64,000 bases of DNA from the NCBI GenBank assembly GCA_965222225.1, contig CBDCTK010000002.1, positions 4,288,001 to 4,352,000 on the forward strand, written 5' to 3'. Both the position numbers and the translations under genes were made by a program. Origin of the DNA: Candidatus Poribacteria bacterium (GTDB lineage: Bacteria; Poribacteria; WGA-4E; JAJDTR01). Below are positions 8,013-50,880 of this stretch, in pieces. The stretch's first letter is position 1. Each line of letters begins with the position of its first letter. The notes beneath the pieces were generated by a model. That model had not been told where the DNA came from. It saw only the letters and a program-made list of their open reading frames with translations, and ran no database searches.

Positions 8013-8070
8013 GGTAGGCAGGGATCAAGTAAGCGAATACCGAGTGCGATAGAGAGTTTCTTGCCCCGCC
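8013..8070 (-). repeat. REP carrying the ~35-bp CTATCGC...TTGATC module (8023..8056)
   Basis: Reverse complement GGCGGGGCAAGAAACTCTCTATCGCACTCGGTATTCGCTTACTTGATCCCTGCCTAC closely resembles 46701..46754. Confidence 0.8.
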
Positions 8071-8224
8071 AAGAATAGGCGGTCGCCATCGGGAGATTGG
8101 TCCCACCAGAGCCTTTAGGCGTTCAATTGCGTATGTCCTAACCGAATCTATAATGTGTACTACAGTTTCTGGTTCATGCGGCTCGATAACACCGAAACAC
8201 CCAGACGTTGAAAGGAGATTCCTC

Positions 8225-9094
8225 ATGCAACCGACCGAACAGCAACTCAATCACTTCCATACCTTCGGCTTTGTGGCTATTCGCGAACTTTTTGCCCCTG
8301 ATGAGATATCTTGGATTACCGATGAGTTTGAGCAGGTCGTCGAGATTCACGGGGGCGACCACGATGGATCGAAGCATACCGGAACCGTGCCGGCGGTCGA
8401 TCACAGTGCTCGACTCTGCACACTGCTTGATGACGCGCGCATTCTCGGTATTGCTTCCGCCATTCTGGGTAATGACTTCAATTATGCCGGTGGCGATGCC
8501 AACTTCTATGTTGGTGAAACCAGATGGCATCCCGACGGAAATTATCCCGATCTATTCGCGATCAAACTAGCGTTCTACTTGGACCCGCTGACCCGTGATA
8601 CCGGCTGTCTCCGCGTACTGCCGGCCAGCCATCGTGCGGACTCCGCTTGGCGAACCGAAGGTATGCAGCCCAGAGATGCCGAAGCGTTATGGGGAATTCC
8701 GTCATCAGAGGTACCTGGTGACGTTGCGCTAGAGACCAAGCCGAGCGATCTTGTGGTCTTTAACCACAACACCTTTCATGCCTCTTTCGGCGGCGCCAAT
8801 CGTAGACGGATGTTCACAATGAATCTGCACAAACGCGGCAAAACAGAAGCGGAATTGGCACGTATAGATGAATACCTCCGCCATCACGGCACGCTGGCAC
8901 GCGGAATCCGTATCGGCGGGAAGTTCACGGGAAACGGCAAGAACAACATGTATTCCCATTTCAGCATGTACACCGACGTGATGCTTGATACGGCTACCCC
9001 GGAGCGACTTCGGCATCTCTCGCAGCTCCACGAACGTGTGGCGCTTGTTCACCCAAAAGCCGCTCCTCCACGTCCCTTGGGTGCGGCGAATTAA
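8225..9094 (+). CDS. PhyH family dioxygenase
   Basis: Same motifs as 5241..6113; RBS AAGGAG before ATG 8225. Confidence 0.9.
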   Translation: MQPTEQQLNHFHTFGFVAIRELFAPDEISWITDEFEQVVEIHGGDHDGSKHTGTVPAVDHSARLCTLLDDARILGIASAILGNDFNYAGGDANFYVGETRWHPDGNYPDLFAIKLAFYLDPLTRDTGCLRVLPASHRADSAWRTEGMQPRDAEALWGIPSSEVPGDVALETKPSDLVVFNHNTFHASFGGANRRRMFTMNLHKRGKTEAELARIDEYLRHHGTLARGIRIGGKFTGNGKNNMYSHFSMYTDVMLDTATPERLRHLSQLHERVALVHPKAAPPRPLGAAN

Positions 9095-9302
9095 CACGTT
9101 GCGGATACCATACGCACAACGTGTCATCTCTCTTCATGGGCGTTTTTTAGGCTCTTGATTTTTTTCTTGCATCGGATCTGATTTTCATGTAAACTAGTAA
9201 CACATTTCAAGACGCATGTGTTATCAGCCTATCTGTGCGTTGCACACAGACAAGGCATTCCTCTTTGAAATGCAACAGTTCAAGGCGAAAAGGAGTAGAC
9301 AC

Positions 9303-10109
9303 ATGAAAACGGGATTTGTTCTAATATGCGCAAGCGTAATCGGCATTGCTGCGCTAATGACAACGAACAGTACAGCGCAGATTGACCCTGCCAATGCCTT
9401 GGGAATATATCTCATGGACGAGGGTGAGGGCAACACAATCGCTGATTCCAGCGGTAACGGAAGTGATGGGAAACTCATGAACGACCCTCAATGGGTTGAT
9501 GGGAAGTTCGGCAAGGCGCTCAAGTTTGACGGCTTGACGACTGTCGTTGAGCTGAACAACCCGATGAATGTTGGGGACTTCGGCACAAGTCACAGCATTT
9601 CGGTTTGGGCGAATCTCGCCGCAGAACAAAATGGTAACGCCGATATGCTCGGTAATCACGGGAAACCCGGCGGCTATGAAATTGAACAGCGGGGAGAGGA
9701 ACATAACAAGTTTTACTTTGGCATGAAAATTAACGACGCATGGCAAGGTGGACCTTGGGCAGAACGTCCGTCAACTCAACTCGTTGACGGCGTATGGGAG
9801 CATCTCGTGGTCATTCGCGAAGGCGACACCGTAAAACACTATTTGAACGGCGACCAAACTGTGGAATACGGCGTTGACCCGGAACGAGTTGAGGACACCA
9901 CCGATTCGAACTTTCTCATCGGTAACAGTGCCTGTTGTGGCGAAGGACGTACCATCACTGGTACGTTGGATGAGGTCGCCATATTTACGGTAGCACTAAC
10001 TGAGGCAGATGTCACCGCCCTTGCGGGAGGATTGATGAATGCTACTTCCGTTGATAGCGCCGGTAAGATGACCACCACTTGGGGCCAACTCAAGTCACAG
10101 TATAAATAA
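9303..10109 (+). CDS. Secreted LamG/concanavalin A-like domain protein
   Basis: Signal peptide; DEGEG, WVDGKFGKALKFDG, GTLDEVAIF; tail VDSAGKMTTTWGQLK; RBS AAGGAG. Confidence 0.85.
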   Translation: MKTGFVLICASVIGIAALMTTNSTAQIDPANALGIYLMDEGEGNTIADSSGNGSDGKLMNDPQWVDGKFGKALKFDGLTTVVELNNPMNVGDFGTSHSISVWANLAAEQNGNADMLGNHGKPGGYEIEQRGEEHNKFYFGMKINDAWQGGPWAERPSTQLVDGVWEHLVVIREGDTVKHYLNGDQTVEYGVDPERVEDTTDSNFLIGNSACCGEGRTITGTLDEVAIFTVALTEADVTALAGGLMNATSVDSAGKMTTTWGQLKSQYK

Positions 10110-10169
10110 TAGACTGCTTTCGACAAGGAAACCACAATCCCTTGAAGTAAAGCAAACCAGATTCAAGTT

Positions 10170-10210
10170 AGGGATGGCTTTCAATTGAAACATTGAGCCA
10201 TCCCTTTTTT
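10170..10210 (+). terminator. Intrinsic terminator
   Basis: AGGGATGGC...GCCATCCCT stem followed by a T run, downstream of the LamG gene. Confidence 0.7.
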
Positions 10211-10298
10211 CATGTCCTACTGTTATAGTCATTTGCATTTATATTTACACATACTTGCTGGCGATTTTATGATTGGAAGTTATTACGAAATGTTTTTT

Positions 10299-10423
10299 GT
10301 AGGAGCGATCGGGAGAAAGATCTCTATCGCCCTCCCTATCCGGTCGGTTGATCGCTCCGACAGAAGCCGCGTAATAAAGGGATTTCTATCGCAGTCGCTA
10401 TTCGCTCCCTTGATCGCCACTAC
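10299..10423 (+). repeat. REP arms carrying two 35-bp modules (10319..10353 and 10381..10415)
   Basis: GTAGGAGCGATC-GGGAGAAA-[module]-GCTCCGAC; second module followed by GCCACTAC. Confidence 0.8.
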
Positions 10424-10681
10424 GAACCGAACCAAGTTGATCCCACGTGTGTAATTCTTAATTGTGTGATGACTATAAGATCGCAAGTTGCGTTTTTCCT
10501 GTTTTCTCGTAGTATCTGAAAACACTGTGTGCCTCGTTCGTTTTAGATTGGCAGATTTGGTATACCGAATTTGCGTGTACGATTATCTTGAGTGTCTCAA
10601 CTCACCTGTTAATAGATGCAGTAAAGCAACAGCCGGACATACAGTTGCCTCACCGTTACGAAAGGCTCAAGGACTAATCAC

Positions 10682-11491
10682 ATGAAAACGAAACTCTTGT
10701 CTATCTGCGTTAGTTTTCTTGGAATTGGTGCACTGTTCGCATTCGACATTTCAGCGCAATTAAGAGTTGAAGACACCGTCGGAATCTGGCTTCTTGACGA
10801 AGGTCGAGGTAAGAACGCCAAGGAGATGGCAGGAAAGGGCCTTGATGGAGAATTGATTAATGGTCCCCAGTGGGTTAATGGGAAGTTCGGTAAAGCGATT
10901 CGCTTTGATGGAGTGTCGCAGTACGTAGAGGTCAATGACCCGCTAAACGTGGGAAGGCTCGGGACGAGTCATAGTATCTCGGTCTGGGTAAATCCGAGCG
11001 CCACGCAGAATGCTCATGCGGACATGCTTGGCAATCACGGTAAACCCGGCGGATATGAGATTGAACAACGGGGCGGCGAGAACAACAACTTCTACTTTGG
11101 CATGAAAATTAATGACACATGGCAAGGAGGACCATGGGCGGATCGTCCCTCAACCAAGCTGGCTGACGGGAAGTGGAACCATTTTGTTGTCATTCGCGAT
11201 ACCGTTACTGTCAAACACTACTTGAATGGGAAGAAAACCGTCGAGTATAAAATCTCCGACGACCCAGTTGACGACAGCCAGGGAAATTTTCTCTTTGGCC
11301 ATAGCGCCTGCTGCGCAGGTCGCAATTTTAAGGGACTTCTAGACGAGGTAGTCATATTCAAGAAAGCAATAGGCACAGACGAAATTCACGCGCTTTCCAA
11401 AGGTGTGGAGGCGGCGATGCATGTCGAATCAACAGGCAAACTCACAACAACGTGGGGCACACTGAAGTCCTACTACGATGCGACACCGTAA
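10682..11491 (+). CDS. Secreted LamG domain protein (tandem paralog of 9303..10109)
   Basis: Shared core DMLGNHGKPGGYEIEQRG...WQGGPWA and SACC; tail VESTGKLTTTWGTLK. Confidence 0.85.
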   Translation: MKTKLLSICVSFLGIGALFAFDISAQLRVEDTVGIWLLDEGRGKNAKEMAGKGLDGELINGPQWVNGKFGKAIRFDGVSQYVEVNDPLNVGRLGTSHSISVWVNPSATQNAHADMLGNHGKPGGYEIEQRGGENNNFYFGMKINDTWQGGPWADRPSTKLADGKWNHFVVIRDTVTVKHYLNGKKTVEYKISDDPVDDSQGNFLFGHSACCAGRNFKGLLDEVVIFKKAIGTDEIHALSKGVEAAMHVESTGKLTTTWGTLKSYYDATP

Positions 11492-11517
11492 GAACTGCAC
11501 CTGTGCGAATCCTCCGC

Positions 11518-11538
11518 GTAGGGTGCGCACCGAGCACC
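11518..11538 (+). repeat. GTAG-type REP palindrome (uninterrupted)
   Basis: GTAGGGTGCGCACCGAGCACC between convergent genes. Confidence 0.55.
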
Positions 11539-11640
11539 AGCCTTTTAGTATTCGAGATTCCGAAGTGTTTACATGAGGGGTACGGGGAATTGATGTCGGC
11601 TGGTTTTTTTATGGACAACCCTATACCTCTGAACGCAACC

Positions 11641-12462
11641 TTAATTTCCTGCCTTAATTTCTCCCCAAGTAACTGCCGCTTTCCCCGACGCCTCGACTGC
11701 AAAAAATCGCTTCAGGGATCCCCGCATCGCACGCTTGATTTCGGCATCTGTCAAAGCGGTGCTGAAGAAGGCGACCTCATCGATAATTCCCTTGAACCAC
11801 TGTTGAACACCGCCGCCGACCCAATTTCTCCCGCCAATCTTCAGCCCTGTCTCATTCGCATCCACTTTAGGCACGAGATCGATTTCCTCCGCAACCTTTC
11901 CATCCACGTAGAGCAAGCGTTTATTGGATTTCCTATCATCCTGCACCCCGACCACATGGTACCACTTGTTCGGCTTGATTTCGGGTCCGTTTGCGGTGGC
12001 GTTTTCGGCTCTTGATTGAAAAGCAAGTTGGTTCTTGTTGGTCAATGAGAGCCGATAAGTCGGTGTGTTGTCCCAGTCGAGCCCCCCCTCCTTGAAATAG
12101 CTCTTGTCAATAATCGAGTAGAACTCTTTGTCGATAACCTTCGGAAATATCCATGCCATGATTGTAAAACTTCCTTTGTCGCCGATATCCAAGGAGAGGC
12201 TATCGTGGTCCGCAACCTCGACGTGCCCCTTGAATCCCGTAAATTCCAGCGCGCCGGCAAACTTCCCCTCTTTCACCCATTTGACGCCCTTTCCCACCAA
12301 GGTCGTCTTGTGCCCATTCAGACTTAGATCTCTCGTGTTCGTGCCCAGACCCTCGTCAAAGGGAAGATAAAGAACGAGTGACTCCTCCTGTATTGCGTCT
12401 ACGCTCCAGACAAACAGAACGGCAGAGCAAGCAACCATTATGCCCAGAATTAATGTTTTCAT
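11641..12462 (-). CDS. Secreted LamG domain protein
   Basis: Signal peptide; LVLYLPFDEG, GKFAGALEF, WYHVVGV, LYVDG, GIIDEVAFF; tail VEASGKAAVTWGEIK; RBS AGGAGG. Confidence 0.85.
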   Translation of the reverse strand: MKTLILGIMVACSAVLFVWSVDAIQEESLVLYLPFDEGLGTNTRDLSLNGHKTTLVGKGVKWVKEGKFAGALEFTGFKGHVEVADHDSLSLDIGDKGSFTIMAWIFPKVIDKEFYSIIDKSYFKEGGLDWDNTPTYRLSLTNKNQLAFQSRAENATANGPEIKPNKWYHVVGVQDDRKSNKRLLYVDGKVAEEIDLVPKVDANETGLKIGGRNWVGGGVQQWFKGIIDEVAFFSTALTDAEIKRAMRGSLKRFFAVEASGKAAVTWGEIKAGN

Positions 12463-12580
12463 AAGCTGATCCTCCTGTGTCAACGTGAATACCCAAAAAC
12501 GGCTATTTCATTCTAACACGTTTTGCGTCTCAGATCAACAAAAACCGTTGGCTAGATCGTATTCATGAAAAGGGCATCTA

Positions 12581-12923
12581 GGCGCCGTTGACATTTCGTC
12601 GTCACCTGATGATCGAAGGAGGCAAAAGTAAGTTTGCTCAGATGAGCAAATTGGCCAAAGCAACCGAGTTTGTGGTAAGTCAGGGCGGGCAGGAAGATCC
12701 CTATCGCATTCGCTATTCGCTCATTTGATCCCCGCCCCTACGGGTTCTGTTTCTGCTTTGCACGTGTTTTGACATGTGGACACAGCTTTACTCGTTTGAG
12801 GAACGACCGAAAAACAAGTCCCCTGGTTAGACATGCACCGGCAACCGTAGGGGTTGGGTCTCCCAACCCTTTGGATGCCTCCGTCGAATTACGCATGCGC
12901 CTAACACAAATGTCAACAGAACC
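12581..12923. mobile_element. Putative MITE with IS5-like ends, containing two inverted REPs and one 35-bp module (12696..12730)
   Basis: Left end (cTA)GGCGCCGTTGACATTT, right end AAATGTCAACAGAACC(TAg): imperfect terminal inverted repeats with a TA duplication. No transposase ORF. Confidence 0.55.
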
Positions 12924-13141
12924 TAGTAATCATCCTTTAGGCGTGCCTCGGATTAACACCTTTTCTCGTGCCAGCTACGTATCAGTATCTGAATATGTCA
13001 CCGAAAATCACTGAACCCTTACCGCTGCCCTGTGCCTCCATAATTCTTTGAACAGAAAGTCATGCCTTTATGATATAATCGGGGGGAGTGAGGCCGTCCC
13101 TCACCCACCTAACCGATGAATCAAAAGGGAAAGCATTCGGT

Positions 13142-15067
13142 ATGGCCGTCGAGGCAGCAAACCAAAGGATAAACGTCACATGGCGATCGGTCATTATAGG
13201 TCTCCTCCTCATCCCACTGAATGCCGTCTGGATTATGCAGATGGAAGCGGTCTACTACTCCGCGCACTCGACGCTAATCGCTCTTTTCTTCAACGTCGTG
13301 TGTAATATCCTAATCCTAATATTGCTGAACATCCCGTTACGAAAGCTATCTCCGAGCTTGGCTTTCAACCAAGGGGAACTTCTCACTATCTATATGATGC
13401 TGAGTTTGTCCTCCGCTCTCGTTGGTCACAGTATGTTACAAGTTCTGCCGCCGACGATGGCGGCCCCCTTGGCTTTAGCCACGCCGGAGAATGACTGGCA
13501 CGACTTGTTTTGGCGACACATCCCACAATGGCTTGCTATCAGCGACGAGCGAGCGCTTGATGGATATGTCAGAGGCGTGAAGAAGGGGGAGCCAACACTT
13601 TATTTGCCGCGAAATATTGAAGCGTGGCTTATGCCGGTTCTCGCATGGTCTGTGTTCGTTGTTGTGCTCATGTTTGTCATGCTTTGTATAAACATCATCA
13701 TCCGCAAGCAGTGGACGGATAGAGAGAAGCTCACATATCCGATTGCCCAACTGCCATTTGAGATGACGAAGTCGGGGACTGGGTTGTTTAGCAGCAAACT
13801 GTTTTGGCTCAGTTTTTCCATTGTCGGACTCATCGGAATCGTCAATGGATTGAGTTTTTTCTTTCCCAACGTCCCCTTTCTCCGTAACACGCCGCCGCTT
13901 GACCTAGCTGTCTACTTTACCACTAAACCTTGGAACGCATTGGGCAAAACTGCACTTCTGATTAGGCCTTTCATCTTGGGACTAGTTTTTCTCATCCCCC
14001 TTGACATCGCTTTTTCCTGTTGGTTCTTCTTCTTTTTTTGGAAGGCTCAGTTGATTTCAGCGAGCGCTTTGGGCTGGAGGGAACGTCCGGAGTTTCCCGA
14101 ACAGAGCATGGGCGCATACATCGCGCTCTCTGCTATCGCATTGTGGACGGGCAGACGCCACCTGATACGCTTCTTCAAATCTGCGTGGAATGCAGATCTT
14201 CGGACTGGTGTCAATGACAACTTGACCGAGCCGCTACGATACCGTACGGCGGTGATTGGACTCGTCTTAGGCTTCGCCTTCCTCGTTATTTTCTGCTGGT
14301 ATGCGGAGATGTCGATGTGGGCGGCGGTTGTCTTCTTCGCACTATTCTTGATGACCGAAATAGGGATTACGCGAATTCGCGCCGAGGTCGGGTCGCCTAT
14401 CCACGACCTTCACTTCGCAGGGCCAGAATATCTGATGGTAGACGCTGTTGGAACACGCAAATTAGGTTCAAGCAGTTTGACCGTGATGTCCTTTTTCTGG
14501 TTCTTGACACGTGCGCACTACAGTGACGTCATGCCACACCAACTTGAAGGCTTCAAGCTGGCAGATCGTGCACGCATGAATCAGCGTAGTGTTCTCATCG
14601 CCATGCTCGTTGCAACAATCTTTGGTACATTTGTCGCTTTCTGGGCAATCCTTGACGCTTCGTACAGATTTGGAAGCGCGTGGAGCGGAAGCGAGCCGTT
14701 CCTACGCTTGAGTGGCTGGCTCACCTACTCAAAATCGACAGACCTCGCCGGGGTCGGCTTCTTTGCCTATGGTCTGTTAATCGGACTCTTTCTTATGGTC
14801 ATGCGACTTCGATTCATTTGGTGGCCCTTTCATCCCGCCGGCTATGCCGTGTCTAGCACCTACGGAATGCGCGGTTTATGGTCAATGTTCTTTCTCGCCT
14901 GGCTTGTCAAACTGCTAGTTCTAAAACACGGTGGACTAAAACTGCATCGTCGAATTCTACCACTGTTCTACGGTATGATTCTTGGCGATTTCGTCGTAGG
15001 CGGATTCTGGGCGCTTTTCGGCGTGGTATTCCAAACTCCGACCTATAATTTTTTAAAGTGGTGGTAG
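13142..15067 (+). CDS. DUF6785/DUF6784-type multi-pass membrane protein
   Basis: GELLTIY, ATPENDW, RKQWTDREKLTYPIAQLP, TRIRAEVG, MPHQLEGFKL, WWPFHPAGY. Confidence 0.8.
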   Translation: MAVEAANQRINVTWRSVIIGLLLIPLNAVWIMQMEAVYYSAHSTLIALFFNVVCNILILILLNIPLRKLSPSLAFNQGELLTIYMMLSLSSALVGHSMLQVLPPTMAAPLALATPENDWHDLFWRHIPQWLAISDERALDGYVRGVKKGEPTLYLPRNIEAWLMPVLAWSVFVVVLMFVMLCINIIIRKQWTDREKLTYPIAQLPFEMTKSGTGLFSSKLFWLSFSIVGLIGIVNGLSFFFPNVPFLRNTPPLDLAVYFTTKPWNALGKTALLIRPFILGLVFLIPLDIAFSCWFFFFFWKAQLISASALGWRERPEFPEQSMGAYIALSAIALWTGRRHLIRFFKSAWNADLRTGVNDNLTEPLRYRTAVIGLVLGFAFLVIFCWYAEMSMWAAVVFFALFLMTEIGITRIRAEVGSPIHDLHFAGPEYLMVDAVGTRKLGSSSLTVMSFFWFLTRAHYSDVMPHQLEGFKLADRARMNQRSVLIAMLVATIFGTFVAFWAILDASYRFGSAWSGSEPFLRLSGWLTYSKSTDLAGVGFFAYGLLIGLFLMVMRLRFIWWPFHPAGYAVSSTYGMRGLWSMFFLAWLVKLLVLKHGGLKLHRRILPLFYGMILGDFVVGGFWALFGVVFQTPTYNFLKWW

Positions 15068-15130
15068 CAATCTTTCTGTTATAATGACATGAACTTAATC
15101 CTCTACCTACTCAAGACAAGGAGATAGATT

Positions 15131-15550
15131 ATGGCAAAAATCGAAATGTACAAAGGTTATGACACGGAACCACCATTTCCCAAACCGGAAGAGAAAGTGC
15201 TGCCGAATATCGTCACCGTCCAAGATGGAATGCCCGTGAAATACCGAAACTGCGAAGGCATCGGCGTACGGATTCTCCATCCCAGCAATCCAAAAGCGCC
15301 CGCTAAGAACATGAGTCTCGTGATGTTTTATGTTCCGCCCCATGTCGAGTTAGAACCGGGCACGGGGCACCACACAGAGGAATGTTACGTCATCCTGAGA
15401 GGCAAAGGAACAATGACGCTGGCAGATAAAAAAGTAGAGGTAGAAGCCGGTACGTTTATCCACCTGCCACCATGGTGCGAGCACGGTATTGAGAACACCG
15501 GCGACGAGACGTTGGAGATATTGATCTGTACCTCACCGCCAAACCCCTAG
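15131..15550 (+). CDS. Cupin domain protein
   Basis: HHTEECYVILRGKG and HLPPWCEHGIENTG cupin motifs; RBS AAGGAG. Confidence 0.85.
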   Translation: MAKIEMYKGYDTEPPFPKPEEKVLPNIVTVQDGMPVKYRNCEGIGVRILHPSNPKAPAKNMSLVMFYVPPHVELEPGTGHHTEECYVILRGKGTMTLADKKVEVEAGTFIHLPPWCEHGIENTGDETLEILICTSPPNP

Positions 15551-15795
15551 TCCTTTGAATGTGGCTAGTCAGCGTAACCGTGAATTTGATTCATGAAAAG
15601 CCTAATTCAGACTCCGTCGTGATTTGAAAATTGGTGAAACCTTGTTACACGCCCGATCTCGACTAACAAACCCAGAATGCTCCCGGCTGAGCTATGCCGA
15701 AATCCTGGGAGTTTCGTTTGACCCACTCACCGATGCTTAGGGGTGATTTTAATCACATCACAAGGTTTGGATATTCACGAAGAAAAATACCTACT

Positions 15796-17595: not shown

Positions 17596-17676
17596 GGTGC
17601 GCACTGCGATTAAGCAAACGCATAGTGCGCGATCAAGTGAATGCACAATGACCGCGATAGAACTCCCATAGAATCC
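17592..17676 (-). repeat. REP arm plus two nested 35-bp modules
   Basis: GTAGGGTGCGCACTGC, then an outer module (17608..17630 and 17668..17676) interrupted by an inner module (17631..17665). The REP GTAG supplies the foldase stop codon. Confidence 0.75.
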
Positions 17677-17788
17677 CAACCAGCCTTCTTGGATTCGGAG
17701 AATCTCATGTATGAAGACTGATAGCGGCAGATGGGGATGTAGGCTAGGACTATAAACCTCAACAAGGTCTCTCGCCCCAGCCACATAA

Positions 17789-40963: not shown

Positions 40964-41043
40964 ACATTCTAGGACTGCGTAAGAGCTTGTTTTGAAGATA
41001 GATAACAAAGCCTTTTTTGGGCATTCGAGTGCTATTACCTGTG

Positions 41044-41112
41044 GAATCTCTATCGCACGGAATTTTCTATCGCGCTCATTATTCATTTGCTTGATCGCAG
41101 TGCACATCCTAC
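41044..41112 (+). repeat. Partial plus full 35-bp module followed by a REP arm
   Basis: GAATCTCTATCGCA, then GGAATTTTCTATCGCGCTCATTATTCATTTGCTTGATC, then GCAGTGCACATCCTAC. Confidence 0.75.
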
Positions 41113-41329: not shown

Positions 41330-41591
41330 TGTAAGTCGGCGTGATTTGTTCGTAGGAGAATTGGTTGTCAACGGCCTCTACTTTTGCACGCTAACCGCGG
41401 GCGATTTCACTGCCACTCGGAGAATGTTGGTCAGCAAGCAGTCTGTCCGCCAATCGTCAATATGGTAGAGAGCTGACTGCACGCCATCGCGAAACGCCCG
41501 TGATTATCTTCTGTTTGTAGGGGTGTCCCTTGTGGGAACTGCCCACCATCCCTGCATTCATACACAATCGTAACTCCGTGACTACATCACT

Positions 41592-42809
41592 ATGAAAATA
41601 ACCGACCTCAAGACATACGTAGTCGCCAATCCGCCTCCCCACCGCGGCGGTCCTTATTTTGTCTTCTTGAAACTGACCACCGATGACAACGTGCATGGCT
41701 TCGGAGAGGTGTATGGCGTGCCGTTCCAACCCGGCAAAGTTGCCCAACTCATTGAGGACGTTGTAGAACGATACGTCATAGGATGGGATCCATTCAAGAT
41801 TGAAAAACTCTGGCGGATAGTTTACTCCAGCGGGTACACGCAACACCCCGACCTAACGTTGGTAGGAGTGCTTAGCGGAATTGAGATAGCCTGCTGGGAT
41901 ATAATCGGCAAAGCCCTAAACCAACCCATCTATAACCTGCTTGGCGGGCAGGTTCACGAGAAACTCCGCTCTTACACCTACCTGTACGCCATATCCGACG
42001 AGGCTCCCGCAACCGATAACATCCATGACCGCAGGATACCTACCAACCTGCACAGTGACCCCGACCTCGCGCCGGAACGAGCCGCCGCCTACGTTAAGCA
42101 AGGCTTTACCGCCCTTAAGTTTGACCCCGTTTTGGGAATGTCTGCCTTTGATCCGCGACAGCTTTCTCTAGAAGTGCTGGACAACGCCGAGCTTGTCACA
42201 AAGAACATTCGCGAGGCGGTCGGAAACAGGTGCGACCTCCTCATTGGCACTCACGGACAAATGACCACGTCCAGCGCGATTCGTCTAGCTAAACGATTAG
42301 AACCGTTCGACCCGCTCTGGTTCGAGGAGCCGGTACCGCCTGAAAATAAATCTGAAATGGCGCGTGTCGCGCAATCTACCAGCATCCCGGTGGCTTCCGG
42401 CGAACGCTTGACTACAAAATACGAATACGTTGAACTCCTCCAAAAGCAAGCCGCCGCGATTCTTCAACCCGCCCTTGCAAGAGTTGGAGGAATTCTAGAA
42501 GCAAAGAAGATTGCGGGTATGGCGGAGGCGCATTACGCGCAAATTGCCCCCCACCTTTACTGTGGTCCCATTGAAGCCGCCGCCAACATACAACTCGGAA
42601 CATGCAGCCCCAATTTCCTTATCCAAGAAAGCATCGAATCGTTCGGTGGATTTCATGCCGAACTTCTCAAAGAACCCATCAGATGGGAAGACGGCTACAT
42701 CATACCCTCCGACAAACCCGGTTTAGGCGTTGAATTGGACGAGGAAGTCGCGGCACAGCATCCGTATACCGGCACAATCTTTCCCGAAATGACCGACAGG
42801 CCTATCTAG
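41592..42809 (+). CDS. Mandelate racemase/muconate lactonizing enzyme family dehydratase (DgoD-like)
   Basis: SGIEIACWDIIGK, GFTALKFD, GTHG, WFEEP, SGE, APH, PGLG. Confidence 0.9.
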   Translation: MKITDLKTYVVANPPPHRGGPYFVFLKLTTDDNVHGFGEVYGVPFQPGKVAQLIEDVVERYVIGWDPFKIEKLWRIVYSSGYTQHPDLTLVGVLSGIEIACWDIIGKALNQPIYNLLGGQVHEKLRSYTYLYAISDEAPATDNIHDRRIPTNLHSDPDLAPERAAAYVKQGFTALKFDPVLGMSAFDPRQLSLEVLDNAELVTKNIREAVGNRCDLLIGTHGQMTTSSAIRLAKRLEPFDPLWFEEPVPPENKSEMARVAQSTSIPVASGERLTTKYEYVELLQKQAAAILQPALARVGGILEAKKIAGMAEAHYAQIAPHLYCGPIEAAANIQLGTCSPNFLIQESIESFGGFHAELLKEPIRWEDGYIIPSDKPGLGVELDEEVAAQHPYTGTIFPEMTDRPI

Positions 42810-42941
42810 CGTAGATTTCGGTCACACGTTGTGTGTTCCGATTATCCACTGATAAAAGGCGCTATGGGGACCGACCGAAACGTGTCGCGAGATACGGGGC
42901 AACCCACTCTCGCAACTGTCAATATCAGGAGCCAACCTACC

Positions 42942-44306
42942 ATGACTGGAGTCATATTTTTCTTAACACAATCTTTACTACAAGCCAAAACCGATACTCC
43001 CGGACCAAATACGCCCTCATCCGTGACTGAAGCTTCGAGCAAAGGACCGACCAAGGCCAACAAACCCGGAGGGTGGAAATGGGATGTGACAATCTATGAT
43101 CGTCCCGGCTGGTCAACGCCGTGGATTGGGGGTCCCAAACTCATTGGGGACGAAATTCTCATCCAGTGTATTTCACACCCGGAAGATATCTACTACGATG
43201 ATTGGTATGCGGAAGAGAGCGACACAGTCACACTGTCTTCGATTGATGGCGGCCTGACTTGGAAGGAAACTTCTAACGAACGATTTGCGAGCGAACCAAC
43301 GAGCTCCTCTGATGACATATTGGTCGATGTATCCACATACTCCGCCCTCACGAACGAAGAAGACCAGGAAAGAAAACGGAGATTGGAGGCTGCCGGGCTT
43401 GGGCATTTATACGATACAACCCTCGGCAGCGGGCCGTCAGGTTGGCTAATCTACCCCGATTCAATGGCAGCCGAACTCAAGGCAAAAGGATATTCCGTTT
43501 TCGACGAGCATCCGACCATTCCCGAAGGGCAAGCCGCGGTTCACGCACGAGCGATAAAGGGGTGGTATTCTACAGACCGTGGGAGGACTTGGGCCGATGC
43601 GGACATTCAAGGGTTACCGATTTTCGGACATGGGCCCGTCCCTAATGGAAGCCTTGAGCTGTCCGACGGTACCAGACTCGAATTCTTTTACGGATGCGAA
43701 CTTCATGAGCAGATGCGGTCGGTTTACGTGCTCCGTTCAACCGACCACGGGGTGAACTGGCATACAGTCAGGATACCTGCCGATCCTGAATTGTCCCTGA
43801 CTGAAACTTCAATGGTGGCTTTCCCCGGCGGTAGAGTGCACATGATGATGAGATGCGACGTTGGCGAGGGTTATATCTACTCGACAAATTCCAACGATGG
43901 CGGCTTGACGTGGAGTGCGGCGGAGCGCACGCCCATACGTGGTCAACCGCTCCTACTACTCAAACTACGGGATGGGGGGATACTTTGCACCTATTGCCAT
44001 CGCTTATTTCCCGGCGGAATACGATCCTGTCTGAGTTACGATGAAGGGGAAACCTACGAATTCGAAAATGAAAAAATCTTGAGAGACGACGTGATTCCCG
44101 GTCCCTGGATTTCCCCGTGCGGTCCCCCCTCAATTGAACTTGATGATGGCACAATCTTCACCGTATACACGTTACCGAAAGTAACCAAGTTGAAGCCGGG
44201 GGAAACAGCCGACGGAGGTCTGTTCAGTGTTCGCCCGAAGTACCACTGCTATGTTGCAGGCAGCCGTTACACCCTAAACTACGTCCGCCCTCTACCCGGG
44301 ATGTGA
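42942..44306 (+). CDS. Sialidase/BNR (Asp-box) beta-propeller protein
   Basis: Asp boxes SIDGGLTW, STDRGRTW, STDHGVNW, SNDGGLTW, SYDEGETY. Confidence 0.8.
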   Translation: MTGVIFFLTQSLLQAKTDTPGPNTPSSVTEASSKGPTKANKPGGWKWDVTIYDRPGWSTPWIGGPKLIGDEILIQCISHPEDIYYDDWYAEESDTVTLSSIDGGLTWKETSNERFASEPTSSSDDILVDVSTYSALTNEEDQERKRRLEAAGLGHLYDTTLGSGPSGWLIYPDSMAAELKAKGYSVFDEHPTIPEGQAAVHARAIKGWYSTDRGRTWADADIQGLPIFGHGPVPNGSLELSDGTRLEFFYGCELHEQMRSVYVLRSTDHGVNWHTVRIPADPELSLTETSMVAFPGGRVHMMMRCDVGEGYIYSTNSNDGGLTWSAAERTPIRGQPLLLLKLRDGGILCTYCHRLFPGGIRSCLSYDEGETYEFENEKILRDDVIPGPWISPCGPPSIELDDGTIFTVYTLPKVTKLKPGETADGGLFSVRPKYHCYVAGSRYTLNYVRPLPGM

Positions 44307-44460
44307 CCCGTGTCCCGGTTCGTAGCAAGGTGATTGAATGCGAGTCCGTAATATGGGGTCGTTCATCCCTTTTGTCCAACCCTCTCCGACCCAGCGTTGT
44401 TTCCCCTCCACTGCTGTAGCCTGAATTCGTGCGAGAGACTTAATGATGACGAGAACGCTG

Positions 44461-44489
44461 TTGACAGCCGCTAAGGACATGTCTATAAT
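44461..44489 (+). promoter_or_regulatory. Consensus sigma70 promoter
   Basis: Perfect TTGACA, 17 bp spacer, TATAAT. Confidence 0.8.
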
Positions 44490-44810
44490 GTCAACGTCAT
44501 ACAGCCTGTGCACCACTTCAATGATACCACGGAGAAGTGCTACGACGTTTCTGGCAACTACTCTATCAAGGGGACCACGCACATTAGAATGGACAGAGCA
44601 ATCGCAAGAGGTATCTGTCCAACAGTTGTCAATCCTCTGTACATACGTCGAGGTGAAGACAGCTTCGGTCCGCAAACCGGTATTTTACCGGATTTGCCTG
44701 AGAATCAGAAATGTGGAGGCCTTGTAAAGAATTGTACTCTTCATGTCGTAATCGTAGCCAGTTTGTTTGTGATACCAAGTCTCATTATGGGAACGGAGGT
44801 AAACAGCGCC

Positions 44811-46586
44811 GTGGCTTCAGAGTTTATTGACACACCAAATGCACGCTACGTCACCCAAATGGACATGTGTCAGCCCCAACAAGCTCTCTCGGATAGAATG
44901 GAACAGGGCAAATGGCAACTGATAACGTACGAAACCGAGGAATTGAAGGGTACCATGGTCGGGGCGCCGCCCATCATCAATGCCCCCAATCTCACCATAC
45001 CGCTAGATGCTTCCGGCTGGCACAAGGTCTACATTGGCTACTGGAATCCGTCCCATCTGTACGAGGACGACGCAATTATAAAGGTCAAGTTAAGTGACCA
45101 ACCGGCTTTTCGTATCTTTCATGAAGACGTGAGCGCCGACAGGCAGGATTCCACCTTCCTGCGCGAAGCGTTTTTTGACTACGCGGACCTTACCGGTCGA
45201 AGTCTGGTAATCGGCAAGTCAAACGGTATCTTGGGCAAACAGATGTTCTTTGCGTATGTCAAGTTGGCCCCCATGAGCGCCGAGGAGATTGACCGAGTCA
45301 TCAAAGATCGAGCGGATAGGTGCACGCGAAAACTAGCCGTCAGTATTGATGGAGCCAGCTACCTTCACCTGTGCGAGTTTAGTAGCCCCAATGACATACT
45401 CTCTCTTGTCGAACCTTATCGCAACTCCGACGTGGGGAGAATCTTCTGGGCAGTCTGTTACGGCGCACTCACCAACTATCCCACTTCGGTTAAAGGGGCG
45501 CAATATCGGGCAGAAGGTGCATGGCCGAATCTTCTCGATCAGGCTTATAGCGATCGTGACCGTGGCATCACGTCTAGGCATCAAGGCGAAAAACAGACGT
45601 TGAACACGCTCAGAACTTTGGCTGTCGACGGGCTCATCCCCCAGCAGTTGGCTGCCGACCACGTTCATAGCATGGGGGTGGGCATCAAGTTCGATTTGAT
45701 GTTTCGCATGGGCATCCTCGGAAATCTTCCGCGGCAACCCGACAGGGGCGATTTTGTCTCCGTGCACCCCGAGTACCGTCAAGTGCTCCGAGACGGCACG
45801 GTGATTGAAAAAGCCAGCTACGCTTTCCCCGAGGTGCAGCAACTGATGCTCAATCTCATTCGAGAGGCAACAACCCTGATTGACGCTGATGGGATTAATC
45901 TCTGCTATACCCGCGGTCCCCGATTTCTCTCGTATGAGCAACCGATACTAGATGCCTTTACTAGCAAGTATGGCGAGGATGCCCGCAGCGTGGATCCCGA
46001 GGATCCGCGCTTACTTGAGGTTCGCGCCGGCATTATGACGGACTTTATGTACAAGGTGCGTCAGACGCTTGATGAAGTAGGCGCCGAGAAGGGCAAACGA
46101 CTGGAATTGTCAGTCTGGGCTTGGCCGCATGACCAAAACGTTTGGCTCGGGAAACGCCCGATTGACGAAGGACTCGATATTCAAGCGTGGATAAAGGCGG
46201 GGCTGTTGGATAGTGTTGTCTCTCGAGGCAATGATCCCGAACGTGGAATATACGGCATCGACAGCGATTACATTTCGCTCGGCAAAGCGCATAACTGCAA
46301 GTTCACTTTGGGTGATGGCGAATACATGCACGCGCTTGGCGAAGAGAGAAGACAGCACTGGTTATTAGCCGCCAGAGAGGCGGACGTTGAATACTTCGCG
46401 TACTGGGATGCGGATTTTGCACAAATCAATCCGGAGCTCTGGGCTTGGCTGCGCTGTATAGGCCACGAGGAAGAGCGGCTCAACTGGGATCACGAAGCCC
46501 ATAAAATCAAATCCATACTTCTCCACACCATTGACGGGATTGATGTCCTGCAGGGCTTGTCCCAAACGGTGTATTCGGGCGGTTAG
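44811..46586 (+). CDS. Putative glycoside hydrolase-like TIM-barrel protein (GHL10-like)
   Basis: HPEYR, YAFPEVQQ, DADGINLCYTRGP, DIQAWIKAGLLD. GTG 44811 follows GGAGGT; the frame is open further upstream, so the start is uncertain. Confidence 0.55.
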   Translation: MASEFIDTPNARYVTQMDMCQPQQALSDRMEQGKWQLITYETEELKGTMVGAPPIINAPNLTIPLDASGWHKVYIGYWNPSHLYEDDAIIKVKLSDQPAFRIFHEDVSADRQDSTFLREAFFDYADLTGRSLVIGKSNGILGKQMFFAYVKLAPMSAEEIDRVIKDRADRCTRKLAVSIDGASYLHLCEFSSPNDILSLVEPYRNSDVGRIFWAVCYGALTNYPTSVKGAQYRAEGAWPNLLDQAYSDRDRGITSRHQGEKQTLNTLRTLAVDGLIPQQLAADHVHSMGVGIKFDLMFRMGILGNLPRQPDRGDFVSVHPEYRQVLRDGTVIEKASYAFPEVQQLMLNLIREATTLIDADGINLCYTRGPRFLSYEQPILDAFTSKYGEDARSVDPEDPRLLEVRAGIMTDFMYKVRQTLDEVGAEKGKRLELSVWAWPHDQNVWLGKRPIDEGLDIQAWIKAGLLDSVVSRGNDPERGIYGIDSDYISLGKAHNCKFTLGDGEYMHALGEERRQHWLLAAREADVEYFAYWDADFAQINPELWAWLRCIGHEEERLNWDHEAHKIKSILLHTIDGIDVLQGLSQTVYSGG

Positions 46587-46700
46587 CCCGATCCCGATCG
46601 GTTGTAGAACGAATCCGAAATCGGGAAAACACGGGGACAGATAATACCATTTCCCGATATTTGAAATGCATTAATAGCGTTACTCAAATCTTACCGATGT

Positions 46701-46754
46701 GGGGCAAGAAGATCTCTATCGCACTCACTATCCGTTCGCTCGATCCCCGCCTAC
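46701..46754 (+). repeat. REP carrying the 35-bp module (46711..46745)
   Basis: GGGGCAAGAA-GATCTCTATCGCACTCACTATCCGTTCGCTCGATC-CCCGCCTAC. Confidence 0.8.
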
Positions 46755-46866
46755 GGGTTTGGTGTGCGGGGTAATAGTTGGTATCGGTAATTTCATAACA
46801 GTATGATTGAAAAACATCATACGCAATATTATTCAAGCGAAATAGTATAACGACTAGCGGAGAAAT

Positions 46867-47685
46867 ATGGGATTCCAACTCACAGACCAACACATTGAAG
46901 ACTTTCATATGTTGGGATACACGGTATTTCGTAAGATTCTTCCCACATCCCTGATTCGAGATCTTCGTCAAGTGAGCCACACCGCGAGAAAAATTGCCCG
47001 TGAACGACTGGGACCGCAAACTCAACGGCTTCAGCCAGTCGGAAACTTCGACATCGATCAACAACCCTTCGTCGACTATGCTGAACTGCCGGATCTCTTA
47101 AAGGCATTCACCGAGTTGTTATCCCCGCGTCATCGACACGGTAACAGAAACCATCTCGGAATCCTAATTGAGCCAGCGGAAGAACCTTACTGTACAGCGT
47201 GGCACCGCGATTGGCGTGATAACCTGCGAGGTTTAAAGCTGGAACGATGGAATCAGCGATTCCAAGATATGAACCTCTTCAATCAAATAAACTGTGCGCT
47301 CTACAACGATAGTTGCACGTGGCTCGTGCCGGGTAGCCACTTGCGGCACGATCTGTCTTGCGAAGCGGAACGGTTTCCCGACCGCCCAATCTGCGGTCCA
47401 AATCTGGAGGACAAGATTGCAGAAGAGCGGGAGAAAATCTGTCTGGAATACTGTCGAAGCATGCCCGGCGGCGTCCAAGTGCACCTGGAAGCAGGTGATT
47501 TTGCTCTTTATCGAAGTTCGCTGTGGCATATAGGAAACTATGTTCCCTACAGCATCCGAGCGACACTCCACGACAGCGCCATGACGCCGGAATTCGAGGC
47601 ATGGAGTCTACAGGTACAGCAGGAGGCATCCGAGCGTCGAGAAGCTGGTGTAGTGATGGACAACCCCAACACCAATCGGCTCTAA
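46867..47685 (+). CDS. PhyH family dioxygenase
   Basis: FHMLGY, WHRD, VPGSH, AGD, WHIG, RATLH. Confidence 0.88.
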   Translation: MGFQLTDQHIEDFHMLGYTVFRKILPTSLIRDLRQVSHTARKIARERLGPQTQRLQPVGNFDIDQQPFVDYAELPDLLKAFTELLSPRHRHGNRNHLGILIEPAEEPYCTAWHRDWRDNLRGLKLERWNQRFQDMNLFNQINCALYNDSCTWLVPGSHLRHDLSCEAERFPDRPICGPNLEDKIAEEREKICLEYCRSMPGGVQVHLEAGDFALYRSSLWHIGNYVPYSIRATLHDSAMTPEFEAWSLQVQQEASERREAGVVMDNPNTNRL

Positions 47686-47749
47686 CCTATGGTACGGACA
47701 CCCTCGATCGCCTACACACTGAACTGCGTGAATCCTAAGGTAAAACCTG

Positions 47750-49656
47750 ATGAAAATCCTCCTGTGTTGCAAGCTTAGCCTTCTGTTCATTTCAGTCCTA
47801 TTGCCACAAAGCGCTTTCGCCCAAGATTACACACGATGGGGGTTGCCGGAAGGCGCCACGGCGCGTCTCGGCAAGGGTCAAATATTCAATATCGCGTATT
47901 CACCGGATGGTATTCGACTCGCTGTTGCCAGTTCCGTGGGCATTTGGCTCTACGATGCACGCACGGGCGTCGAATTCGCTCTACTTACCGGGCACACGGG
48001 ACGCCTCTCTAGCGTTGCATTCAGTCCAGATGGCGGGACGCTCGTCAGTGGAAGTGACAACGGTACTATCCATCTGTGGGATGCGCCCACAAGCACTCTA
48101 AAGCTAACATTCAAAGGGCATGGGGATTGGACCACTAGCGTAGCGTTCAGTCCGGATGGCAGGACGCTTGCCAGCACGGGTTTGCACGGGACCATCCGAC
48201 TGTGGGATGCGCTCACAGGCGCACGTAAACAGACTCTCGAAGGGCATATGCGTGTCGTCCATAGTGTAGCGTTCAGTCCGGATGGCGGGACGCTCGCCAG
48301 TGGAAGTAGTGACAACACAATCCGGCTATGGAATGCGGTCACAGGCGCCCACAGCAAGACTCTCAAAGGGCATACAGATTTAGTCAGTAGCATAGCCTTC
48401 AGTCCGGATGGGAGCACACTCGTGAGCGGGAGTTCGGACGGGACCATCCGGTTGTGGGATGCCGTTGCAGGCGCACAAGTGCAGACTCTCGAAGGGCATA
48501 CGGATTGGGTCGGTAGCGTAGCCTTCAGTCCAGACGGCGGGACAGTTGTGAGCGGAAGTGGCGACAAGACCATTCGCTTGTGGAACACCGTCACAGGTGC
48601 ACAGGTGCAGACTCTAAAGGGACATATGCATCCAGTACACAGTATAGCCTTCAGCCTAGATGGCGGGACGATCGCCAGCAGCAGTGACAATACCGTCCGG
48701 CTGTGGAATGCGCTCACCGGTGTGCCAAAGCTAATACTTGAAGGGTATACGGATTGGGTCTCAAGTATAGTGTTTAGTCCGGATGGGGGTACGCTCGCCA
48801 GCGGGAGTTGGTTTGGGACCGTACAGATGTGGGATGCAGTCACGGGTGCTCACAAGCGAACCCTAAAAGGGCATAGGAAATGCGTCAATAGCGTGGCGTT
48901 CAGCCCGGATGGTGGGACTCTCGCAAGCGGGAGTTGGGACTGGACCATCCGTCTGTGGGATGCGCACACGGGTGTCCATAAACAGACGCTCAAAGGGCAT
49001 ATAGGAGACGTTAATAGTCTTGCGTTCAGTCCGGATGGGAGGACGCTTGCTAGTGGGGGTGAACGTACTAGCTTATCTGGAGGTGACAAAACCATACGGA
49101 TATGGGACGCGGTTACTGGCGTTCAGTTGCAGGTTCTCATAGGACATACAAGTTCGGTGAATAGCATATAGCCTTTAGTCCGGATGGCGGAACGCTTGGC
49201 AGTGGGAGTGGATACGCGCTTCGACGTGGGGATGACAACACCGTCCGTCTGTGGGATGCCGTCACGGGCCAATACAAGCGAGTGCTCACCGGTTATACAG
49301 ATGAGGTTACTAGCATAGCGTTTAGTCCGCATGGGAAGACACTTGCTAGTACGAGTAGCGATGAACTCCACTTGCGGGATGCCAGCACGGGCATCCACAA
49401 ATGGATCCGAAAACCAGACTCGGGGGGCCTCTCAAGTGTAGCATTTAGCCCGGACGGAGGCACCATCGCCAGTGGAAGTTACGATGGCACGCTGCTCTTG
49501 TGGGATGCGGTCACGGGCGCCCACAAAAAAACCTTAAAAGGGCATACGAGTTGGGTCACCAGCGTAGCCTTGAGCCCGGATGGAGGGACGCTCGCCAGCG
49601 GAAGCCAAGATGGTACAGTGCTCCTATGGTCAATGACGCCGTACCTACGCAAATAA
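47750..49656 (+). pseudogene. Secreted WD40 repeat protein split by a +2 frameshift at ~49165-49170
   Basis: WGLPEGATARLGKG plus WD repeats. AGCATATAGCCTTTAGTCCG has an extra AT relative to the repeat unit AGCATAGCCTTYAGTCCG; repeats resume in the 49282..49656 frame. Confidence 0.85.
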
Positions 49657-49736
49657 TTTTGTGTAGTACATCCGCCTAATTTACCAGCTAAAACGGTCGG
49701 GGTTATACCGATCACTACTTTGCGGAGGAAAAACTG

Positions 49737-50693
49737 ATGACTGCAATTCAGACCTACATTGATACTTACAATCGCGATGGCTATGTCGTCGTACCGGACG
49801 TTTTCGATCCGGATCGCGCCGCAGCCGCTTTGCGGGACATGGAGAGCTTATTCTATGGAATGAGTTTCGAGGAATATTTGGCAAAGTCGGACAAGGCAGG
49901 AGAAAATGCGCCCCTTGAGTCGGCTTACGGGTTTCAGTTTCCTTGCGGCAAAGACTCTCTCGATTGCCTAATAGAAAACGACTACCTTCTCGACTTGATG
50001 GGAGCACTTCTGGGCGCAGACCAAATAAGGTTCCGTTTCGGCGGATTGTTTCTCCGATCAGGTCCGACCGACACCGTTCCCGGTGGGTCCGGTATCGAAC
50101 ACTCCTGGCAGGGCTATCATACCGACCATCATACAGCCTGCTATTTGCCGCATACACAGGATTCACATTTTAACTGCTATCTGATTGCCGGCGCGCTTCT
50201 TCATGATATCGAAGATGACAATGCTCCCATGCACATCATACCCGGTTCGCATAAGCAGATTCCCGGTTTGATACCGCGTCTAATAGAAGAAGGAATCTTT
50301 AGCCATTGGTGCGCGATTAAAGACATTCGCGAGATCCCGGAATTTGCGGCGCCGGTGCCTGCGAAGGGTAAAGCCGGCAGCGTCTTGTTGCGATCTTCAT
50401 ACGGTGTACACGCCGCCGTCCCCTTCCGAAATAAACGTAACCGGCGGGCGACGTGGGGTTTCACGGTCAGTTCCGCGGCATCAAGCGATTGGATGACACG
50501 CCATATCGGCGAACGCGGACTAGAGACCGAGTTCACGCACGCCTTCTGGGCAAAGACTACGCCCCGCGTCCGATCAGTTTTTGGTTGGCCCATGCCCGGA
50601 CATCCGTATTATACGCGCGAAACGCTCTCCCTTCTCGCCGCTTGGTATCCAGGAATAGATCTTACCCCGTATGAACAGCGCCTAGTTGCCTAA
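49737..50693 (+). CDS. PhyH family dioxygenase
   Basis: YNRDGY, YHTD, IIPGSH, GKAGSV, HAA, RR; RBS GGAGG. Confidence 0.85.
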   Translation: MTAIQTYIDTYNRDGYVVVPDVFDPDRAAAALRDMESLFYGMSFEEYLAKSDKAGENAPLESAYGFQFPCGKDSLDCLIENDYLLDLMGALLGADQIRFRFGGLFLRSGPTDTVPGGSGIEHSWQGYHTDHHTACYLPHTQDSHFNCYLIAGALLHDIEDDNAPMHIIPGSHKQIPGLIPRLIEEGIFSHWCAIKDIREIPEFAAPVPAKGKAGSVLLRSSYGVHAAVPFRNKRNRRATWGFTVSSAASSDWMTRHIGERGLETEFTHAFWAKTTPRVRSVFGWPMPGHPYYTRETLSLLAAWYPGIDLTPYEQRLVA

Positions 50694-50715
50694 AACCTGT
50701 TTGAAATGTACATTT

Positions 50716-50880
50716 GTAGGGTATGTACTGCGATCAAGCGACTGGGCAAGGTGCGCGATAGAGATTCTACCTGCCTCTAAAAGCCCCAGAGGGGTCAAGC
50801 GAACGGATATATCAAGGGAGTGAACAGCGAGTAGGATTTCCTATCGCCTTCGCTATCCGCTCAGTTGATCGATAGGGATC
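50716..50880. repeat. Cluster of four 35-bp modules: one on a REP arm (50732..50766) and a nested group (50793..50880)
   Basis: Minus-strand module TATCAAGGGAGTGAACAGCGAGT...CGATAGGGATC is interrupted by a plus-strand module (50834..50870) and follows a partial copy at 50793..50809. Confidence 0.75.

Follow-up and report, generated by a model that had tools for sequence, protein, structure and literature searches.

A 64,000-nt stretch of a Candidatus Poribacteria genome (contig CBDCTK010000002.1, positions 4,288,001 to 4,352,000, forward strand; hereafter the window) carries scattered copies of a gene-less element of 35–37 nt. The original prediction placed these copies in repetitive extragenic palindromes (REPs) and in one another. 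The comparison of filled and empty sites now shows, with high confidence, that the element is an independently mobile unit. The element is real and is new among very small mobile repeats. A literature search of open-access full texts returned no description of it.

Ends, targets and distribution of the element

All strands are given as the strand of the element that reads TTGATC, and the opposite one is called the folded strand. The element profile was seeded with 8 window copies and then iterated over the genome (5.70 Mb, 2 contigs). The scan gave 1,111 matches at 20 bits or more, and the reversed genome gave none at 12 bits or more. Most flank and site counts rest on the 1,084 copies at 25 bits or more.

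The 5′ end of the folded strand was exact: ATCAA directly followed a target G in 969 of the 1,084 copies. The target lost 0–3 bases on the 3′ side of this G, a number typical of each site, and none was duplicated. Paralogous empty sites were found for 327 copies, and the net gain was 33–36 nt in 284 of them. The TTGATC end had been thought to coincide with a GAT(C) of the target. This must be corrected: GAT is part of the element, and the target contributes no more than the last C, a G on the opposite strand. The orthologous spacers of five sister genomes gave two clean filled/empty pairs of the kind that had been proposed as a check. In the first, G001 was filled and G009 empty, with 36 nt inserted and 1 nt lost; in the second, G003 was doubly nested and the orthologous spacer of G008 was empty. 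Among the orthologues recovered, none was an exact empty counterpart of a window copy. Two copies are common to G005, one spacer had no recovered orthologue, and elsewhere the host repeat was usually missing altogether.

The nested copies gave a second line of evidence. The 3′ part of another copy followed 339 copies, the 5′ part preceded 414, and both were present for 227, against 1 in the reversed-flank control. In 32 of the 44 cases open to the test, the host halves flanking the inner copy formed pairs with one another (shuffled mean 19.7, maximum 27). The variable bases of inner and host copies matched in 13 of 122 cases, against about 24 after shuffling. Because the host halves rejoin and the inner copies do not resemble their hosts, these are insertions into one host and not local duplications. 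The paralogous and orthologous empty sites, the rejoining hosts and the lack of duplication thus bear out the proposal of a separate, very small, non-autonomous mobile unit that enters several REP types and itself. In the G005 orthologue of window positions 17596–17788 (L072), the element had collapsed between two GCGAT repeats and only ATAG and the tail were left in the REP, which is a likely decay route.

The defined target sites were mostly G^C, followed by G^A. Immediately 5′ of the 1,084 copies on the folded strand stood an own copy on the same strand (339) or on the opposite strand (42), 381 own copies in all. The other 5′ flanks were GTAG within 14 nt (277), a second REP type (74) and other sequence (352); in the GTAG control, 145 of 3,000 random intergenic sites had such a flank. 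No class of target is therefore larger than the own copies, and REPs, though common, are not the only hosts. CRISPR (clustered regularly interspaced short palindromic repeats) repeats were also hit. Parasitism of REPs as the defining trait of the element is thus not supported. The rebuilt empty sites of 154 non-self insertions had a fold energy of −5.1, compared with −4.5 for mixed flanks and −4.0 for random intergenic sequence. As the site energy is only slightly lower, a general rule of hairpin targets is weak.

The densest 5-kb bin held 25 copies over a CRISPR array, where the repeat hairpin was split on both strands. This array (G000:C2:2705500-2707950), with a cas3/cas10d-like operon, had its repeats split by about 20 copies, and blocks of the damaged array were duplicated. 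The array may be non-functional.

The element could instead be a mere linker of REPs or of bacterial interspersed mosaic elements (BIMEs), or a passenger of composite repeats, immobile alone. One core does occur 45 times, mostly within one REP context, composites ride in a miniature inverted-repeat transposable element (MITE), and most orthologous spacers lack the whole host repeat and not the element alone. However, at least six REP sites, CRISPR repeats and seven self sites share the same exact G junction, and paralogues and orthologues hold filled and empty forms of the same host. The element is thus not bound to one fixed REP context, it has no Rfam match, and the passive linker is largely refuted and very improbable. 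Part of the copy number is nevertheless passive multiplication inside REPs and the MITE. The MITE (G000:C2:137800-138000 and about 30 like sites) has AGAGCCTGTTTGAA-type terminal inverted repeats, and its cargo is two REP types and element copies. At G000:C2:1578260-1578700, tandem 38-nt units with different cores are joined by one short linker ending in GTAG, which resembles the tails of genus g4 and BIME-like amplification.

A pattern scan of the species collection gave at least 131 loci, and all those listed were titled Candidatus Poribacteria. Viral contigs gave 0 element matches. The distribution was then read from 61 genomes with up to 3 mismatches allowed: 10 of genus g1 and 4 of genus g4, which are the 14 element-rich genomes, and 47 others. 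All 10 g1 genomes had 804–1,600 matches and all 4 g4 genomes had 250–298. Among the other 47 genomes, one had 21 matches, one had 6, one had 2, nine had 1 and 35 had none; the reversed pattern gave 2 matches in total. The single 3-mismatch matches in other genera were rejected as true copies and read as chance, because they lack hairpin pairing and turn up repeatedly at like places. Exact copies in G041, G043 and G010 adjoin ordinary genes. Those in G059 are spread over four small contigs and were perhaps carried over in binning.

Hairpin, tail and strand bias

The core of the element on the TTGATC-reading strand is CTATCGC NN TC NY TRTYC RN TC NN TTGAT (profile columns 9–37, 29 nt). The folded strand reads ATCAA-NN-GA-NN-G-RAY-A-NN-GA-NN-GCGATAG, followed by the tail. 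Among 1,001 distinct 38-mers, the mutual information was 1.11 bits for columns 20–28, 0.87 for 17–31, 0.73 for 16–32 and 0.37 for 21–27. Watson-Crick pairs at 16–32, 17–31, 20–28 and 21–27 made up 66, 84, 88 and 76% of 688 distinct cores. The shuffled controls, which overstate the significance of the covariation as the copies are kin, gave 30, 42, 36 and 48%, and pairs slid by one column gave 2–44%. The four pairs varied almost independently of one another (mutual information 0.03–0.27), which points to many separate compensations.

The paired bases vary freely, and the G·A mismatches between them stay fixed: the fixed T·C columns of the TTGATC strand are tandem G·A on the ATCAA strand. Sheared G·A pairs are stable. 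The tandem G·A context with a 5′ A ranks as the least stable; among the 12 commonest contexts of each tandem, a 5′ A occurred only once (8 cores). Non-canonical combinations at the covarying pairs gave G·T 350 times on the ATCAA...GATAG strand and 90 times on the TTGATC strand, an excess which identifies the ATCAA strand as the folded one. The element thus has a strand-specific hairpin on its ATCAA strand, and the covariation fits DNA or RNA alike. The original prediction had described an asymmetric module without convincing terminal inverted repeats. Terminal repeats are indeed absent, but the module is not structureless.

The tail after GATAG was A-R-A-T-C-Y-Y in 646 of the 1,084 copies and one base longer in 264. 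The lengths differ within the tail and not at its border, so no artefact of boundary placement is involved. The 8-nt tail was found in 2/80, 62/64, 50/57, 1/25 and 15/17 copies at five self sites, and in 2/75 copies at six REP sites. Within each core type the tail length followed the landing site, and the same held in other Poribacteria records. Identical cores carried many tails, rare tail sequences gathered at one self site, and the last base of the tail depended on the adjoining target bases. In genus g4 the same core had a different tail: in 19 of 30 loci from G012 and G015, CTAT was preceded by AAGA or AAAA. Core and tail were weakly linked (mutual information 0.05–0.10). The tail may be shaped at insertion, or else tails may be heritable and select the targets. 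Nested pairs had the same tail in 14 of 243 cases, compared with 42 expected from non-nested tails. The idea that identical nested tails collapse and only the others survive fits this count in part, and it leaves the fixed tail length per site unexplained.

The copies also showed a strand bias. The TTGATC strand was the local G-rich strand in 423 clusters and the C-rich strand in 150, which places the folded strand on the C-rich strand at about 3:1; without a skew threshold the counts were 523 and 242. Genes showed no such bias (1,264 vs 1,246). The GTAG REPs leaned the same way as the folded strand (143 vs 38 and 114 vs 61), and all six long skew segments showed the same direction. The replichores were taken from skew alone. 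If the G-rich strand is taken as the leading one, the folded strand has the sequence of the nascent lagging strand. The GC skew of G000:C2 (5.6-Mb contig) flips its sign at least six times, which suggests large inversions or misjoins. Of 814 clusters, 598 held one full copy, and adjacent copies lay on the same strand 241 times and on opposite strands 56 times.

The element was mostly intergenic. No clear link to transcription was seen with a crude caller of open reading frames (ORFs): 338 copies were antisense and 277 sense, and 168 lay between convergent and 170 between divergent genes. These data bear on the notion of a functional host site, either protein-binding DNA or structured RNA, kept by selection. 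The strong structural conservation in two genera and the intergenic location would suit such a site. However, the positions are mostly not conserved across species, the copies disrupt each other and CRISPR repeats, and sense or terminator positions are not preferred. We regard a host site as extremely improbable.

Proposed transfer and candidate enzymes

We speculate that the element moves by HUH-type single-strand transfer with loose 3′ closure, and we give this mechanism as a whole slightly less than an even chance. The non-autonomous element would move as a single DNA strand. An HUH-type enzyme (Y1 or like a REP-associated tyrosine transposase, RAYT), acting in trans, would recognise the folded strand by its shape and cut it at G^A. 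The enzyme tyrosine would hold the 5′ end of the element and join it to the 3′-OH of the target G in single-stranded or nascent fork DNA. The 3′ end may be closed by a looser step (a second cut, or re-annealing and repair), which would trim the target and alter the tail. The G may be chosen by the conserved TC of the tail, acting as a guide. Many copies would later have been multiplied passively inside REPs and a MITE. The exact end, the reliance on stem mismatches and a guide-chosen G fit HUH chemistry. PMC8266576 describes HUH enzymes as acting on folded single strands, with contacts to stem mismatches and formation of a 5′-phosphotyrosine; in the same paper a RAYT is sent to GA and GT sites by a GTAC guide. 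The covariation, the empty sites, the rejoining hosts, the strand bias shared with the GTAG REPs and the presence of the Y1_Tnp family in 52 of 61 genomes also count in favour of this mechanism.

Several observations weigh against this transfer. Nearest-neighbour DNA folding of 3 copies on both strands gave −0.3 to −3.6 kcal/mol (z −0.6 to +1.6) and no stable hairpin, so that the hairpin rests on the covariation and on the stability of sheared G·A pairs. The core and tail showed no guide-like covariation with the flanks beyond the site classes, and no guide–target complementarity. IS200/IS605 insertion is not known to cost target bases, and the element loses 0–3 nt. If the G-rich strand is leading, the folded strand occupies the template of the leading strand, the reverse of what IS605 prefers. 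The insertion site of IS200/IS605 transposons is the 3′ side of a fixed tetra- or pentanucleotide (PMC7290912), and here only the G is fixed. The target loss, the site-dependent tail and the apparent strand polarity suit target-primed copying better than HUH transfer. Furthermore, Y1 and RAYT genes are just as common in genera that lack the element, and a RAYT-like family (L002) was too narrow (9/61 genomes, none in g4). Among the matches listed, the flanks of REPtrons carried host REPs, and the element occurred there only as an invader. No cognate enzyme was identified among the families searched, and no candidate fitted the distribution over g1 and g4. On a 20-kb stretch rich in the element, contigs of 4 public runs mapped mainly across repeats, and no excision signal could be read from them.

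The searches for the mobiliser were single-family searches, and the enzyme may be lost from some genomes. An IS200-like family (L001) was rejected, as it occurred in 36 of 61 genomes, g3 and g6 included, and its gene was flanked by another REP. The matches of the RAYT model (51/61 genomes) were too widespread. IS110 (DEDD) had no match in 5 genomes, 3 of them element-rich, in a search whose controls matched in 6 of 14. No Y2 transposase was found in 5 genomes, and as the controls of that search were likewise without a match, this result carries no information. G000 and G008 had no TnpB, and 52 and 14 TnpB-like matches came from G018 and G036, both of which lack the element. Crude motif screens of 4,605 ORFs gave nothing new, and 91 ORFs with the element on both sides shared no recurrent enzyme.

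A target-primed copy-in is the first alternative. Here a reverse transcriptase (RT) or another polymerase would be primed by a nicked or nascent target strand, with an RNA or DNA copy of the element as its template. This would leave one exact junction; a template jump would add error-prone purines, skip 0–3 bases and rewrite the tail, and the element would be a minimal bacterial unit like a short interspersed element (SINE). Target-primed retroelements, such as R2 and endonuclease-minus group II introns, have one exact and one variable junction, a small target deletion and a replication-strand bias. The element shares all of these; it differs in its length of 35–37 nt and in having no RT of its own. 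That tail length follows the site and not the core, with many tails on identical cores, also speaks for copying. Heritable tail variants choosing targets would yield the same tail table, however, and core and tail are only weakly linked. An AbiA RT was found in 6 of 10 g1 genomes and 1 of 4 g4 genomes (7 of the 14 element-rich genomes), with fragments only in 2 of the 47 others. It is a defence-type RT, it is missing from 7 of the 14, and no element or template adjoined it in 4 of 5 loci. The RT search in 5 genomes returned AbiA only, and the orientation of the element is not tied to transcription. We consider target-primed copying rather unlikely. One AbiA RT gene (L031:514-2526; G000:C2:4499560-4501572) lies behind an apparent restriction-modification locus, and the matches of several relatives had stops or were fragmented.

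The folded strand may also be captured, as an off-target substrate, by an integrase of the host or of a passenger, be it Cas1-Cas2, a tyrosine recombinase or an enzyme not yet recognised. The element is as long as the spacers of the local CRISPR array, most of the 25 copies in that 5-kb bin lie within repeats, and Cas1 was present in all 14 element-rich genomes. The nearest clade of a solitary recombinase (E < 1e-120) was found in 12 of these 14 and in 5 of the 47 others, although kin genomes are not independent. On the other hand, Cas1 also occurred in 31 of the 47 other genomes (45/61 in all). Cas1 duplicates its target, which was never seen for the element. The recombinase was rejected, as it ends a conserved operon and, among the matches listed, had no element beside it in most genomes. 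Integrase capture is therefore improbable, and we rate an unforeseen enzyme class about as low.

The solitary tyrosine recombinase has five close copies (G000:C2:460255, 1313887, 3335622, 3989323 and 4161171), each closing an operon that also holds a gene without a Pfam family. In G000 and G008 a 110-nt leader, conserved and structured-looking, lies ahead of it. One Cas1 clade has a RAYT-like gene immediately downstream in some ten Poribacteria genomes (G003:C1:3515347, G001:C1:3624220, G021, G024, G037, G041, G043, G045, G047 and G055), and in G000 a nested element stands at this place instead.

Whichever enzyme acts, the element brings together hundreds of filled sites paired with empty ones and exactly delimited, a structure that natural compensatory changes define, a strand bias tied to replication and a rule by which the junction depends on the site. 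It disrupts CRISPR repeats and REPtrons in an uncultured sponge symbiont. The spread of REPs, small dispersed repeats (SDRs) and other repeats under 50 nt is an open question, which the element makes concrete: which protein makes the cut at G^A, and is the tail passed on or written anew? If an enzyme inserts a shape-defined 36-mer after G without duplication, this would be a new small-cargo insertion chemistry. The element might even be a minimal mobile unit of a categorically new kind, with a 29-nt core recognised by its stacked G·A shape and not by its sequence, copied after G into a nicked or nascent strand, and a short, lineage-specific tail written afresh each time it inserts. We think this doubtful; if true, the element would parasitise a host or defence enzyme in the manner of a SINE, and that enzyme would belong to no transposase class described so far.

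Comparison with known repeats and copies in the window

REPs, BIMEs and REP doublets forming hairpins (REPINs), with their RAYTs, are described in PMC8266576, PMC3116915 and PMC3733652. Like these, the element is an imperfect hairpin of 20–50 nt with hundreds to thousands of intergenic copies and no coding capacity. It shares conserved stem mismatches with group 2 REPs as described there, and its strand bias with the GTAG REPs of its own genome. Unlike that of REPs, its hairpin has no 5′ tag, be it GTAG or another. The 5′ flank consists of target DNA, and the GTAG near 277 of 1,084 copies belongs to the host and lies at varying distance. Unlike REPs, it also lacks a cognate RAYT locus; among the matches listed, RAYT loci were flanked by host REPs and were found in genera without the element. 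It further differs in nesting in itself, in the loss of 0–3 target bases and in its site-dependent tail. In contrast to REPINs and BIMEs, it moves as a single unit with defined ends and not as an inverted doublet. The dissemination mechanism of REPs 'remains to be elucidated' in the words of PMC8266576.

The SDRs of Nostocaceae, known here through the accounts of Elhai et al. 2008 in PMC5861425 and PMC4390886, are likewise very small, gene-less, dispersed mobile repeats with no known enzyme. In these accounts, SDR5 inserts between the third and fourth bases of GCGATCGC (highly iterated palindrome 1, HIP1), i.e., after GCG, and many element copies likewise sit after GCG. SDRs are reported there only from Nostocaceae and SDR5 is precise in HIP1, whereas the element occurs only in Poribacteria among the matches listed and has many trimmed targets. 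By the descriptions in these citing papers, the element appears in kind nearest to the Nostoc SDRs, and an overlap in structure or junction rules is possible.

Palindrome-associated transposable elements (PATEs) and other non-autonomous IS200/IS605 elements, as described in PMC7290912, also depend on hairpins, lack terminal inverted repeats and target duplication, show a replication-strand bias and are moved in trans. The element has one hairpin where these have two ends, and it is far shorter (the PATE-like unit described there has 271 nt). It also has no fixed tetra- or pentanucleotide target (only G), an imprecise 3′ junction and no parent IS found. Unlike MITEs, it has neither terminal inverted repeats nor target duplication.

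The profile found 9 full copies and 4 split or partial copies in the window. The original prediction had listed about 12 intergenic copies in both orientations, nested ones included, and three empty REP relatives. All of these were recovered (Table 1). It was also right that the window encodes no transposase, as none was present among the 46 ORFs scanned.

Table 1. Element copies and empty REPs in the window.
Feature	Position	Strand	Context
Full element, 29-nt core and 7-nt tail	8024..8059 (profile match 8023-8060)	-	GTAGGCRGGG-type REP host; 40 bits
Full element	10317..10352 (profile match 10316-10353)	+	GTAGGAGCGATC-type REP, host 10299-10361; 52 bits; spacer without element in all 4 orthologues recovered
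Full element	10379..10414 (profile match 10378-10415)	+	GTAGTRGCG-type REP host; 57 bits
Full element	12694..12729 (profile match 12693-12730)	+	GTAGGGGCGGGG-type REP host; same copy present in G005, absent in G001, G003, G008 and G009
Outer split element	17609..17678	-	Within GTAGGGTGCGCACTGCG REP; interrupted after CTAT by inner copy, 2 nt lost; site class 12|16
Inner full element	17632..17667 (profile match 17631-17668)	-	7-nt tail, type enriched at that self site
5′ portion of outer element	41043..41058	+	3′ portion missing
Full element, 8-nt tail	41059..41095 (profile match 41059-41096)	+	Tail length expected at self site after CTATCGCNN
Full element	46709..46744 (profile match 46708-46745)	+	GTAGGCGGGG-type REP host, 3 target nt lost
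Full element	50733..50768 (profile match 50732-50769)	-	GTAGGGT..CTGCG REP host; like site in G005 holds a copy of the same core type
3′ remnant of outermost element	50793..50809	-	
Middle split element	50811..50882	-	Interrupted by opposite-orientation inner copy, 1 nt lost; class 'own copy, opposite'
Inner full element, 8-nt tail	50833..50869 (profile match 50833-50870)	+	
Empty GTAG REP, GGTGCGCACTGCGCACC type	6996..7020	+	
Empty GTAG REP, GGTGCGCACTGCGCACC type	11518..11542	+	Empty in G005 too
Empty REP doublet, GTAGGAGCGATC type	50896..50925		

Rfam gave no match in the window at the gathering score, and at E ≤ 10 only weak, unrelated matches between positions 7,900 and 18,000. The genes of the window encode PhyH dioxygenases, LamG and WD40 proteins, and sugar enzymes. 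In the WD40-repeat gene (window 47750-49700), the repeats continue beyond the ORF end (49171) in another frame, and the gene is possibly frameshifted.

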